Shown in pieces: positions 5,869 to 62,211 of a stretch of 64,000 bases of DNA (positions are counted from its first letter, which is position 1; the number at the start of each line of letters is the position of its first letter). The position numbers and the translations under genes were made by a program. Under the pieces are notes generated by a model. It was given only the letters and a program-made list of their open reading frames with translations. It did not search any database and had not been told where the DNA came from. The stretch is from positions 18,290,001 through 18,354,000 of the forward strand of contig OX597816.1 in the NCBI GenBank assembly GCA_951406725.2. Reading direction: 5' to 3'. The stretch is from Octopus vulgaris (lineage: Eukaryota).

Positions 5869-6636
5869 GTTTATAATAAAGCTTTAAAAGATAGTGGTTT
5901 TAGCGAAAAAATAAAATATACACCTATCACCAGCCCAACAGTAAGGAAAAGCAATAATAGAAATAGGAAGGTCATCTGGTTTACGCCCCCTTACTCACCC
6001 GAGGTGGCCTTCAATATAGGTAAATATTTCCTAGCACTGATAGATAGACATTTTCCAGTTAACCATGCTTATAGGAAACTCTTCAATAGACACAATTTAA
6101 AAATTAGTTTTAGTTCAACTACCAATTTTAAAAACATAATCAATCATAACATACAAAAAACACAAGAAGAAAACAGCTGTTCATGCAGGAATAAAGAATT
6201 GTGCCCGCTAAATGGAGCTTGCATGTCCAAGACCATCATATATGAAGCTACCGTAAACTCTATAACCACTAAAGACACCGTTTCGACGAAGAAATACGTG
6301 GGCCTGACAGAGGGTAATTTCAAGGCCAGGTTCAATAACCACACTTTGAGCTTTAGGCACTGGAACAAAAGAAAAGCGACACAATTATCCAATCATATTT
6401 GGTCTTTAAGAGATAAAGGTGTCGATTATAACATACAATGGAAGATTTTGGCCAGATGTAAGCCCTACACTAACGGCAGCGGAAGGTGCGGTTTATGCGA
6501 CATGGAGAGATGGCTTATCTGGAAAAGCAGCTTAGACCCTACCACATGTCTAAATACAAGGACAGAGATTTTCGGATCATGCCCACATGCGACTAAATTT
6601 CTGTTACGTTTTTGGTCCCCTAAAGAAAACGGATAG
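5869..6636 (+). CDS. Penelope-like element C-terminal fragment: linker plus GIY-YIG endonuclease
   Basis: Open frame from 5869: YNKALKDSGF..WFTPPYS..CSCRNKELCPLNGAC..IIYEATV..KYVGLTEGNFKARFNNH..CGLC; RT core absent. Confidence 0.85.
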   Translation, partial: VYNKALKDSGFSEKIKYTPITSPTVRKSNNRNRKVIWFTPPYSPEVAFNIGKYFLALIDRHFPVNHAYRKLFNRHNLKISFSSTTNFKNIINHNIQKTQEENSCSCRNKELCPLNGACMSKTIIYEATVNSITTKDTVSTKKYVGLTEGNFKARFNNHTLSFRHWNKRKATQLSNHIWSLRDKGVDYNIQWKILARCKPYTNGSGRCGLCDMERWLIWKSSLDPTTCLNTRTEIFGSCPHATKFLLRFWSPKENG

Positions 6637-6965: not shown

Positions 6966-7425
6966 GCGGCTTATATTTATTTGCTGCCGATAAATTTGGC
7001 GCGAGTGCGATGATTTGAAAATTTTAGGTCAGATATTGCCGAGGCAGGGACGGAGATGCCTCGTGAAAATATCTGTTCCGTTCTGGCTATTTCTTACTGA
7101 GGAATCTAAGGGCCTATGGAAGATTGGCTTGATTTAATTTAATCAGGTTAGTTTACCATTAAACAGTAGATGAAACGGTGCATCGTATAAGAAATTACAG
7201 GGTAAATGTTTTTTAATTTTCTCCTGGTTTACGGAATTAATGTTATTTTGCGGTTGAAGCTTTGGCTGTTATTTCTAGTGGGTGAATGGCCTATTATTGC
7301 CGTTCCTTGATTGTGATGTTGAACTTATAAGTGGTCTATGACTATTTAATTTTTTCCCACTAGGCCGCTGGTGGCAAAAAAATTCTACAAAATTTTTTTT
7401 GCCACCCTATATTGATTAATTATAT
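6966..7425 (+). mobile_element. ~450-bp non-coding hammerhead-bearing repeat (probably Penelope pLTR-derived)
   Basis: Inverted near-identical copy at 14410-14864; flanked by (TA)n. Confidence 0.75.
7089..7195 (+). ncRNA. Type I hammerhead ribozyme
   Basis: ATTTCTTA-CTGAGGA-ATCTA..TAGAT-GAAA-CGGTGCATCG-TA-TAAGAAAT. Confidence 0.85.
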
Positions 7426-7492
7426 ATATATATATATATATGTACATTCACACATCCATAAGCGTTATATATTTAGAAGTGTGTATACTGTA

Positions 7493-10385: not shown

Positions 10386-10576
10386 GATATATACATATAT
10401 GTATCTATCTATCTATCTATATATATATATATATTTGAGTAGTTGAATGAATTATCTTATTATGGATAATTCGGTTAACCGATACCTGGGTAGCAAATTC
10501 ACGTCAGAAAAACACGGTTGAAGCTACATGCCTAGGGCACAGATCACGTGCTTTCGTGTGGAAATTTGTGTGTTTT

Positions 10577-10771
10577 TTTAAATACAAATAAATGAAAGAA
10601 TGGAGTTGAACGACGAATTAACAAAATTCCTTTATTTTCGACATATGTTTCGAAGGCTGTATATTCCTAATTTCGAAGGAATAAGGGGTGCATTATGCCG
10701 CCTTCTCATCAGGAAAAACAAGGAATTTTGTTAATTCGTCGTTCAACTCCTTTCTTTCATTTATTTGTATT

Positions 10772-10775
<4 letters not shown>
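10577..10775 (-). ncRNA. Type I hammerhead ribozyme inside a ~60-bp inverted repeat
   Basis: Minus core 10635-10717: TTTTC-CTGATGA-GAAGGC..GCCTTC-GAAA-CATATG-TC-GAAAA; arms 10577-10639 and 10713-10775. Confidence 0.88.
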
Positions 10776-10833
<58 letters not shown>

Positions 10834-10895
10834 GTGTGTGTGTGTGTGTGTTCGTACTCATTTTGCCCCGCTGCTTGGAATTTTATTTTAATTCT

Positions 10896-10977
10896 CTCGC
10901 AGGAAGGCCTAGTGGATTAGTGTTCTGTCTTTGCCTTCGAAACATGCTTGAGTCTACTAGCGACAGCTGATGACGGG
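10896..10977 (+). ncRNA. Non-circularly permuted hammerhead-like ribozyme
   Basis: GAAGGC/GCCTTC-GAAA, GTGT/ACAT, CTGTC/GACAG-CTGATGA, extra helix CTAGTGGA/TCTACTAG. Confidence 0.7.
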
Positions 10978-11172
10978 TTTTTTTCCTTGTGTAGCACGTA
11001 CTGTAACTGTTTTTTCGTTTTCTTGTTTTTTTGTTTTTTTTGTTTTTCCCGTTTCTACGTCTTATTGTGTTGTCCTGTAATCACGTATAATTATTTATAT
11101 ATGCATGTATATATACATGTAGATGTAGGTACGTACATATATGTTTGTATGTATGCATATATTTTTATTTAT

Positions 11173-11213
<41 letters not shown>

Positions 11214-14353: not shown

Positions 14354-14409
<56 letters not shown>

Positions 14410-14410
<1 letters not shown>

Positions 14411-14864
14411 TAATTAATCAATATAGGGTGGCAAAAAATTTCGTAGAATTTATTTGCCACCAGCGGCCTAGTGGGAAAAAATTAAATAGTCATAGACCAT
14501 TTATAAGTTCAACATCACAATCAAGGAATGGCCATAATAGGCCATTCACCCACTAGAAATAACAGCCAAAGCTTCAACCGCAAAATAACATTAATTCCGC
14601 AAACCAGGAGAAAATTAAAAAAACATTTACCCTGTAATTTCTTATACGATGCACCGTTTCATCTATTGTTTAATGGTAAACTAACCTGATTAAATTAAAT
14701 CAAGTCAATCTTCCATAGGCCGATAGATTCGTCAGTAAGAAACAGCCAGATCCGAGCAGATATTATCACGAGGCACCTCTATCCCTGCCTCGGCAATATC
14801 TGACCTAAAATTTTCAAATCATCGCACTCGCGCCAAATTTATCGGCAGCAAATATAAGCCGCCG
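14410..14864 (-). mobile_element. Second copy of the ~450-bp hammerhead-bearing repeat
   Basis: Reverse complement of 6966-7425 with scattered substitutions; TA-flanked. Confidence 0.8.
14637..14743 (-). ncRNA. Type I hammerhead ribozyme
   Basis: Minus: GTTTCTTA-CTGACGA-ATCTAT..ATAGAT-GAAA-CGGTGCATCG-TA-TAAGAAAT. Confidence 0.85.
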
Positions 14865-20328: not shown

Positions 20329-20597
20329 AAAATACAAAAATGGGACAAGAACGCAAAGCATCCAGACAGTTAGGTGAAACAAGAAAAAAGGAAAAAATAT
20401 CCAGTCAGACGATACAGGGAAAGCATGGACGGATCATTCGGAGCTGGCCAGATTGGAGCAATCTCGAGAGTAACCAGCCGAAATTGCAAAGATAATCTGG
20501 AACTCGACTGAGGATACAAAACTACGAATGATCCGTCCTTGTGTTTCTTGTATTGTCTGTCTGGATGTTTTGCGTTCTTGTCCTATTTTAGTATTTT
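20329..20597 (+). mobile_element. Fold-back mini-element enclosing a permuted hammerhead
   Basis: Inverted arms 20329-20370/20557-20597 and 20427-20440/20525-20538; TA-flanked. Confidence 0.7.
20443..20514 (+). ncRNA. Non-circularly permuted hammerhead-like ribozyme
   Basis: GCTGG/CCAGC(C)-GAAA, GCAAT/ATTGC, TCGAG/CTCGA-CTGAGGA, extra helix CCAGATT/AATCTGG. Confidence 0.7.
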
Positions 20598-35883: not shown

Positions 35884-35989
35884 TCACTAGCTACAGCGGA
35901 ACATATCCTAAAATTAGAACGATACAGAGAAGATTAGCATGGCCCCTGCCCAAGGATGACACGCAAATTCGTGAAGCGTCCCATATTTT
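35884..35989 (+). ncRNA. U6: U6 snRNA copy, probably a pseudogene
   Basis: ACGATACAGAGAAGATTAGCATGGCCCCTGCCCAAGGATGACACGCAAATTCGTGAAGCG..CATATTTT; diverged 5' stem. Confidence 0.9.
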
Positions 35990-35993
35990 CTTA

Positions 35994-36174
35994 TAGGCGT
36001 AGGAGCGGGTGTGTGGTAAGTAGCTTGCTTACCAACGTAATGGTTCCGGGTTCAGTCCCACTGCGTGGCAACTTGGGCAAGTGTCTTCTATTATAGCCTC
36101 GGGCCGACCAAAGCCTTATGAGAGGATCTGGTAGACAGAAACTGAATGAAGCCAGTCGTATGTATGTATATATG

Positions 36175-36206
<32 letters not shown>

Positions 36207-36415
36207 AGTGTATTTTTGTGTCTGTGTTTGTCCCCCGCAACATCGCTTGACAATCGATGCTGGTGTGTTTACCTCACCGTACCATAGCGGTTCAACAAAA
36301 TAGACCGATAGAATAAGTACTAGGCTTACAAAGAATAAGTCCTGGGGTCGATTTCAATGAATAAAGGCGGTGCTCCAGCAATGTCGCAGTCAAATGACTG
36401 AAACAAGTAAAAGAG

Positions 36416-36416
<1 letters not shown>
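35994..36416 (+). mobile_element. SINE family B
   Basis: Full copy directly after U6. Confidence 0.85.
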
Positions 36417-36449
<33 letters not shown>

Positions 36450-36730
36450 TTCGTCATAAATATTTCACTAAAATTATATTATTACAATATATATATATAG
36501 AGAGAGATATATAATAACAAAATAATAAATAAAACATATGCATATATACATACATATATGTACGTACCTACATCTATATGTATATATACATGCTTATATG
36601 GGTACAGGACACACAAAAAACAAACGTCGAACACAATGAGAAACAAAAACATAAAAACAAAACCAAGGAAACGGACGTTTTTTAAACAATGAAAAAACAG
36701 AGTAAAAGACATACAACACTAGGAAAATTC

Positions 36731-36818
36731 CCCTTCTTCAGCCGCTTCAGTTTCGTCTACTCCGTGTTTTGAAGGTAAAGGCGAGACACGACTTCAGGAA
36801 ACTGTCCTTCCCGCAAAG
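36731..36818 (-). ncRNA. Non-circularly permuted hammerhead-like ribozyme, G12-mutated copy
   Basis: Minus: GAAGG/CCTTC-(A)AAA, CGTGT/ACACG, TCGC/GCGG-CTGAAGA, extra helix CAGTTTC/GAAACTG. Confidence 0.6.
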
Positions 36819-37454
36819 CAAATTAAATAAAATTTGAGATTTTTTGCGGAGGGGTAAAAGTGGTCACAAAAACAGGACAATAAAAACAATACAAATAAAA
36901 ACTGTAAAAGACAGGACAAGGAGAATAACAGTAACACAAACATTAAGGGCTGTTAAGCCTGAAGGAATGAAAAAATATTTTGAATGCTTTGAAAACGGCT
37001 TGAGAGGGACAGAGAAGGCCGTCTACACTTGTTGGAAGCAGTAGTCAGAAAGGCAGTAGACCTCTGGTCATGTGTCAGTGACGGAAGGGAGGGGGAGGAG
37101 TAAAAGAAAGGGAGAGAAAAAGGGAAGCGTTGTAGAGAAAACCCAGAAAGAATGAAAAATGAGAGAGAGAGAGAGGGACAGTAAGGTTAAAGAAAGGAAA
37201 CCAGAGAGAATGAAGAATGAGAGAGGGAGGGGGACAGAAAGGTTAAGAGTGCGCATTATTATTATTAAGATAAAACTTACTTGGAAATGGATGCGTGGTG
37301 TTCCATCATATAATAACCAAATAATAAATAAAACATATGCGTGTTTGTATACATGCTTATCTTTGTATATTCTAAAATGTGTTTCTAGGCATGTTCACTC
37401 ACCCCCACACACATACACGCTCATATGTTTAATTACGTACTTGTCAAAATATGT

Positions 37455-62092: not shown

Positions 62093-62211
62093 GTTTACGG
62101 CCATATCACGTTGAAAGCACCGGTTCTCGTCCGATCACCGAAGTTAAGCAACGTCGAGCCTACTGAGTACTTAGATGGGTGACCGCTTGAGAAACCTAGG
62201 TGCAGTAAGCG
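62093..62211 (+). rRNA. 5S: 5S rRNA copy (orphan, probable pseudogene)
   Basis: GTTTACGGCCATATCACGTTGAAAGCACCGGTTCTCGTCCGATCACCGAAGTTAAGC..GATGGGTGACCGC..GTAAGC, ~119 nt; no T-run terminator. Confidence 0.92.

Follow-up and report, generated by a model that had tools for sequence, protein, structure and literature searches.

A decayed, retrozyme-like repeat copy in Octopus vulgaris with a probable split-core S-G-C hammerhead motif and a predicted stem II partner upstream of the cut

The insertion at 36.7 kb of the window (the whole stretch of 64,000 nucleotides of Octopus vulgaris contig OX597816.1 that was analyzed) is, in our judgment, quite probably a decayed copy of a retrozyme-like repeat carrying a split-core hammerhead motif in the block order S-G-C, with a stem II that would be completed by a strand located upstream of the predicted cut. 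The same block order is found in a sister copy at 10.9 kb and in the consensuses of eight families, each derived from 12-31 copies and anchored on GAAA, CUGANGA, and H17. The full layout reads, from 5' to 3', Y (the stem II strand), X, S, G, X', stem I, and CUGANGA. Table 1 gives the coordinates of these features.

Table 1. Positions within the window of the predicted hammerhead copies and of the elements recognized in them.
Feature	Position	Strand	Basis or remark
Whole insertion, 844 bp	36511..37354	-	~1.06 units of a non-coding ~800-bp repeat; blastn and sequence
Strand Y (GAAGG), which would form the 5' side of stem II and donate G10.1	36806..36810	-	Watson-Crick partner in 8/8 family consensuses
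Extra helix X, 5' strand CAGTTTC, tying stems I and II	36804-36798	-	Pairs with 36754-36748
Helix X, 3' strand GAAACTG	36754-36748	-	Helix at the same place in 8/8 families
Block S: stem III strand, GUC triplet, stem I strand	36779..36790	-	Alignment and family consensuses
Stem III strands CGTG / CACG	36790-36787 / 36766-36763	-	
GUC triplet	ends 36785	-	Predicted cut between 36785 and 36784
Stem I strands TCGC / GCGG	from 36784 / to 36742	-	
Block G: stem II strand CCTTC, GAAA as AAAA, stem III strand	36763..36775	-	Alignment
AAAA in place of GAAA	36770-36767	-	G12A at 36770
Block C, shortened: stem I strand plus CUGAAGA, stem II strand missing	36735..36747	-	
CTGAAGA	36741-36735	-	
Purine/pyrimidine tract after A9	36721..36734	-	Predicted short hairpin or rival weak stem II partner
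AT-rich 3' block common to the 10.9-kb family	36511..36600	-	Most insertions end in it
Sister family A copy, 5'-truncated, intact core	10848..11176	+	Alignment
Core of the family A copy	Y 10903-10908; cut after 10924; GAAA 10939-10942; CUGAUGA 10967-10973	+	
Ribozyme of the distant family J (predicted)	20442..20514	+	AUC triplet ending 20463; GAAA 20480; CUGAGGA 20508

The original prediction described a third permuted hammerhead at this place, and every helix it named, the triplet, and the core words are present on the minus strand, with the other two copies lying at 10.9 kb and at 20442-20514 (+). The homology it proposed between the downstream flank and the 10.9-kb copy also holds: when 36480-36880 is reverse-complemented and aligned with 10850-11180, 77% of columns agree, and the two share a block (36574-36553, corresponding to 11122-11143). 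Both copies align without gaps from the triplet to GAAAC and from the stem I strand to CUGANGA, and the pairings are therefore at homologous positions; the extra helix differs in length between them and aligns less cleanly than the core. That the helices differ and still pair represents real covariation, which the family consensuses uphold. Regarding the permuted fold as a whole, its order and covariation stand, while stem II, which the prediction left unspecified, appears to find its partner upstream of the cut.

The core words CUGANGA, GAAA, and NUH are present in all eight family consensuses, the 36.7-kb copy itself carrying G12A. Across these consensuses, stem I comprises 39 Watson-Crick pairs and one G-U pair in 40 cells and stem III 30 Watson-Crick pairs plus one in 32, with double changes at each position of both stems. 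The triplets vary among GUC, GUU, GUA, AUA, and AUC, and G17 never occurs. A helix joining stems I and II (helix X, 5-10 pairs) is present in 8/8 families, formed by the strand before stem I' and by a second strand that comes from upstream of block S. A type II (G-S-C) reading that uses the GUA/GUC after GAAAC was discarded on inspection, as it leaves no possible stem I.

With strand Y, stem II is Watson-Crick paired in 40/40 cells of the eight consensuses through five sequence solutions: GAAGG:CCUUC in four families, whose Y sequence is identical, and GAGCA:UGCUC, GCCCA:UGGGC, GACAC:GUGUC, and GGCUG:CAGCC in the others. Y precedes G12 by 35-43 nt and helix X by 0-1 nt, and the first stem II pair (G10.1-C11.1) is G-C in 8/8 consensuses. 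All three stems covary around the core, whose pairs G10.1-C11.1 and A15.1-U16.1 are both present. Y was initially selected as the best upstream partner, which chance achieves in 1.4-3.4% of shuffles per family; MAFFT, unaided, placed it in identical columns in all lineages but F, where it is one column off. On a MAFFT alignment of 24 distinct copies, whose related rows inflate pairing and covariation counts, the Y helix is 82.5% paired with a covariation of 0.43 (0/500 shuffles), whereas the contiguous strand after CUGANGA is 65.8% paired with a covariation of 0.19 (446/500 shuffles). The pairing of both strands is understated there because families E, F, and J are one column off at GAAA.

These comparisons bear on whether the motif is an ordinary type SGC ribozyme with an extra base after A9, in which stem II would form with the strand that follows and Y would act as an off-switch delaying cutting. 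We regard this as quite improbable: the contiguous strand yields 15 Watson-Crick pairs, 12 G-U pairs, and 13 mismatches in 40 cells, with only 2 pairs in E and F, even if it can form G-C, G-U, G-U, and G-C in the window's lineage. An extra base at the A9 step occurs in the published SGC descriptor and, in the available text of PMC4209133, in Penelope hammerheads, and seven of the eight consensuses keep a G after CUGANGA-N (+2) that could pair with C11.1 as well; this first pair, however, is missing in family J (G at +2 in 0/30 loci) and in the metagenome locus L405. The covariation of the contiguous strand does not rise above shuffles, and its predicted duplex energies in E and F are -0.7 and +0.9 kcal/mol, versus -8.3 and -8.1 kcal/mol for Y.

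Because the stem II partner lies upstream of the cut and not after CUGANGA, the predicted core likely has a backbone break between A9 and G10.1 and would be assembled from four segments instead of the usual three. The simplest reading is that type SGC has been circularly permuted and opened within block C at this step, with stems I, II, and X meeting in a three-way junction as in the published SGC ribozymes. A break at A9/G10.1 touches a metal-binding part of the hammerhead core, and activity could suffer. No closing helix across the break exceeded shuffles in any of the eight families; a hairpin with a closing helix is predicted in families B and C, not beyond shuffles, and the short hairpin predicted in the tract 36721..36734 (-) is no better than shuffles. 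The idea of a triple helix was dropped, since on inspection it fits a single lineage only. When folded without pseudoknots, three copies show no stability beyond that of shuffles (z 0.81, 0.73, and 0.12), and the 20.5-kb copy owes its low fold energy (z -3.93) to its own inverted duplication.

The 36.7-kb insertion is 91.5% and 88.7% identical by blastn to the full units L006 and L015, over 848 and 884 columns, respectively. Its last ~50 bp are a copy of its first ~50 bp, and (TA)n adjoins its 3' end. The AAAA that replaces GAAA, from which the copy had been judged probably inactive, was seen as described: the G12 position is A here and G in 26/29 other copies. A further lesion, absent from the original prediction, is in stem I, where position 36746 has changed from G, kept in 27/29 other copies, to A. 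With G12A and the C-A mismatch that this stem I lesion creates, the 36.7-kb copy is probably dead; restoring G12 alone would leave the stem I mismatch in place. Helix X of this copy differs from the majority of its own family by a T-A to A-T double change. Taken together, its sequence is that of a decayed family member with a probably inactive predicted ribozyme. The upstream sequence is not a Penelope ORF end; it belongs to the non-coding repeat, which continues back into the downstream flank. The PSGL in which the original prediction saw a weak resemblance to such an end belongs to a short frame and reads differently in 3/3 translated sister copies, and three Penelope-type proteins of the same genome gave no tblastn match to the upstream region.

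Based on the final model, a descriptor finds three sites in the window (10924+, 20463+, and 36785-) versus 0.005 per shuffled window (200 shuffles). A descriptor demanding a contiguous stem II recovered 2/3 of the window copies; the 20.5-kb copy was missed by the first descriptor because of that demand. This family J copy is without a contiguous stem II partner, and its Y starts with A where the family has G. At gathering thresholds, Rfam did not detect the motif anywhere in the window and reported only U6 and 5S.

Across the 2.8-Gb genome, more than 12,000 exact pattern matches were found, including 5268 for the CCTTC lineage (0 in the reversed control), 6942 for family J (control 0), 477 for family F (control 0), and 50 for family E (control 1). 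The two window copies gave 2494 and 1003 first-look candidates genome-wide, which are not copy numbers, and family D gave 3199 candidates. Families E and F were chosen from a loose pattern list, and D and J were met beside Penelope-type loci. Among 130 metagenome and viral pattern matches, from a metagenome scan covering 33/64 parts, one (L405, contig JACCDR010061988.1) has the split layout without a contiguous stem II; stems I and III are absent from the other 129, three viral ones included. The split-core motif of L405 is located in AT-rich non-coding DNA, and the bases that follow its CUGAUGA can also fold back over the motif, possibly giving an off state.

The copies are non-coding, pyrimidine-rich units of ~750-900 bp, single or arranged head to tail with periods of 798-801 (the L006 dimer), 832 (a trimer), 898, and 769-779. 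Each unit has one predicted hammerhead, and the window copy has no match to a Penelope protein. The 3' ends continue into (TA)n from within or just past the AT-rich block, which lies ~200-300 nt downstream of the ribozyme, while the 5' ends vary; inversions that join copies head to head at the ribozyme are frequent. Contigs from four runs, which we guess to be RNA and which are not on record as such, span the unit. In the contigs of all four runs, a joint leads back over 138 nt (L049:1675-1812), probably marking a subfamily with an internal duplication. The terminal redundancy of the 36.7-kb insertion would fit, without proving, a circular RNA form.

Given that tandem units exist and that, in the accessible text of PMC4209133, dimeric activity is known for metazoan Penelope hammerheads, the blocks might instead act between neighboring units as a dimeric hammerhead of normal circular order. 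This is highly improbable: stem III has at least 4 pairs and is not palindromic, the partners are all found inside ~75 nt and held together by helix X, and the units are ~800 nt apart, with most copies single.

Cutting at the predicted position could leave its mark on the 5' ends of the copies. These were sampled from the first 93 of 1810 matches in genome order, anchored on CUGANGA and the downstream bases only, with one internal deletion removed. Of the 88 copies that reach it, 25 end within a 36-nt interval whose upper limit is 5 nt above the predicted cut, compared with 5/63 in the next 36 nt (Fisher p = 0.0018, the intervals having been set after inspection of the data); those five include one inversion joined at the cut and two internal rearrangements. 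Most ends in the pile-up are located 4-20 nt inside the cut, with a mode at 6-7 nt. Junctions at the cut or at most 1 base away were found in L144, L174, L070, L272, L312, and L498, which represent four lineages. In family J, 7/30 loci end by eye at or below the cut and 2/30 at ~10 nt above it; an automated count in J, E, and F was discarded, as it was confounded by (TA)n runs matching one another.

The 5' ends at or just below the predicted cut are an indirect sign that points to cutting, and stalling of reverse transcriptase in the structure could produce a similar pile. A broader form of the latter idea holds that the structure is hammerhead-shaped and does not cut efficiently alone, needing the element's protein or serving in protein binding or pausing, with the 5' ends left by stalling. 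We consider this unlikely. It agrees with the anole Penelope-like element, whose hammerhead needs protein to cut and is not required for insertion in vitro (PMC11167929), and with the sample itself, in which about two thirds of the copies extend through the site and most pile-up ends fall inside the structure and not at the cut. Stalling, however, would be expected to peak at the structure's 3' foot, where only 4/92 ends are found, and the ends thin abruptly just above the predicted cut. Moreover, the catalytic bases and the NUH rule are kept over five lineages while the stems change, and a mere roadblock needs neither.

If the split-core motif cuts as proposed, tandem or read-through transcripts would cut themselves into monomers of ~0.75-0.9 kb. 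A Penelope-type reverse transcriptase, originally that of Naiad, may then initiate at a nicked (TA)n target, using a site ~200-300 nt downstream of the ribozyme, by internal priming as in the anole element (PMC11167929). On cut linear RNA it would run off at the cut and give short copies, and on circular or uncut RNA it would read through to yield terminally redundant copies such as the 1.06-mer at 36.7 kb. We lean toward the wider view that the four-segment core, a topology beyond the six permutations held possible, is the ribozyme that Naiad elements across animal phyla had seemed to lack, that it is active in vivo, and that it acts on the RNA of tens of thousands of retrozyme-like copies without protein in this genome.

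The Penelope link suspected in the original prediction is found in another form, in the sister family F, which corresponds to the 3' end of Naiad elements. In the part of the material of Craig et al. (2021, PMC8557442) available, Naiad_Ovul carries the mark "HHR_half_core." The last ~130 nt of Naiad_Ovul match the family F consensus by eye almost base for base, and so does the end of the record before it (by file order Naiad_Obim). The split layout is likewise visible by eye at the ends of three neighboring records, Naiad_Aacu and Naiad_Anas included, and at the end of one further Naiad record, among 30 passages viewed, and visual inspection of the published Naiad ends also suggests a closing helix of 5-8 pairs. 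In 12/20 fetched Naiad RT loci (of 21 motif matches), the F region follows the RT in the same orientation, nearly whole in 9, and a strict pattern finds the F ribozyme in 3/20. Neither an ORF with N-terminal GIY-YIG and RT nor homology to a Naiad end is present in the window family, while family F has the end homology; by blastn, the families of the window copies match Naiad nowhere outside the fold.

No intact Naiad was present among 140 genome matches, the longest open frame being 325 aa. Because these matches are all broken and the best family A matches are 96-99% alike, no mobilizing enzyme was found for the young families. Two young Penelope-type families sitting in (TA)n are candidates for the mobilizing enzyme. 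As an autonomous partner, an element encoding 781 aa with RT and GIY-YIG, which we take to be Neptune-like from its CxxC linker, was set aside, as the fetched loci have no such ribozyme at a fixed place. The same applies to an element of ~900 aa with a DKT motif, presumably Hydra-like (Pfam assigned no family), whose loci lack a split ribozyme at a fixed place and which has a canonical type I hammerhead motif. Matches to the repeat unit in the loci of both young elements occur at scattered places and in scattered orientations.

Several observations concern these elements in their own right. The 781-aa element (L211-L216, L222, and L223) is young, with an intact ORF and an overlapping upstream ORF of at most 479 aa; its repeat end is rich in CCAAT, TGACGTC, and TATA words, and a hammerhead was not seen there. 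L466 and L467 are tandem arrays, with a period of ~3623 bp, of an 899-aa Penelope-type ORF that has many intact copies and a long low-complexity insert between RT and endonuclease. Within the window, tblastn matches (E 4e-10 and 1e-7) at 5950-6519 (+) mark broken fragments that resemble the ~900-aa protein in its C-terminal part. A canonical type I hammerhead is located in inverted repeats at 10500-10800 (-), with its motif at ~10640-10725 and CUGAUGA at 10712; it adjoins the 10.9-kb copy, its stem II is also GAAGG:CCUUC, and the region is 89-91% like the ends of the young ~900-aa element.

Elsewhere in the window, a full U6 snRNA copy is present at 35890-35990 (+), and a high-copy interspersed repeat (35993-36417) starts within 3 nt of it, which makes a U6-retroelement chimera possible. 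An isolated 5S rRNA match lies at 62093-62211 (+). The repeat pair 6966-7447 / 14384-14862 (94%) contains CUGANGA, GAAA-like words, and strong hairpins, and inspection found no valid NUH in it.

If the proposed layout is true, the assumption of an uninterruptible CUGAnGA block, which set the number of hammerhead permutations at six, would be overturned, and non-circular permutations of the hammerhead would be placed in animal chromosomes. It would also explain the hammerhead-less look of Naiads and the misses by standard descriptors and Rfam. The 5'-end pile-up at the predicted cut makes the in vivo role of Penelope hammerheads testable, and the free A9/G10.1 junction would offer a new place for attaching sensors in ribozyme engineering.

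Our literature search, mostly of non-subscription papers, found no description of the split-core layout; bioRxiv supplements might list such repeats. The available text of PMC8370743 and PMC3088659 contains no precedent for an opened A9/G10.1 step. Judged by its sequence, the octopus motif appears to be a hammerhead variant that is SGC-like and lacks an uninterrupted block C: a stem II strand 1-2 nt from CUGAnGA is at best weakly possible, in the window's lineage. According to the accessible portion of Eckert et al. (2023, PMC10085705), the type-SGC order has been validated in vitro, block C is taken to run without interruption from the stem I strand through CUGAnGA to the stem II strand, and the descriptors require CUGAUGAG or CUGAUGAUG followed directly by the stem II strand. 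The octopus motif resembles type SGC (HRIMA-1 and variants) in its S-G-C order, its short linker between stems I and II, its full core consensus, and a fourth helix that joins the far ends of these two stems. It differs in that its stem II and linking strands lie upstream of block S, whereas those of SGC are at the 3' end, where the published SGC-1 oligos carry, by eye, the stem II strand and then the linking-helix strand. In addition, the octopus genome holds thousands of copies, whereas that text reports no SGC ribozyme from the genome of a known organism.

Similarly, the repeats share with the non-LTR retrozymes, as described in the available text of bioRxiv 10.64898/2026.07.22.740005, non-coding dispersed units with one hammerhead each, in tandem or single, a unit length inside the reported 51-972 bp, and a tie to Penelope-like elements; unlike them, they carry an S-G-C motif that would escape descriptors of the type I hammerheads by which those retrozymes are defined. 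With Naiad elements (PMC8557442, accessible part), they have in common (TA)n targets, inverted 5' pieces, and partial tandems, although Naiads are described there without canonical hammerheads and the window family is without an ORF. Finally, the type I hammerheads of Penelope elements, in the available text of Cervera and de la Pena (2014, PMC4209133), show the same core, the G10.1-C11.1 pair, and a position at retroelement ends, whereas their circular order, minimal palindromic stem III, and contiguous stem II set them apart from the octopus motif.
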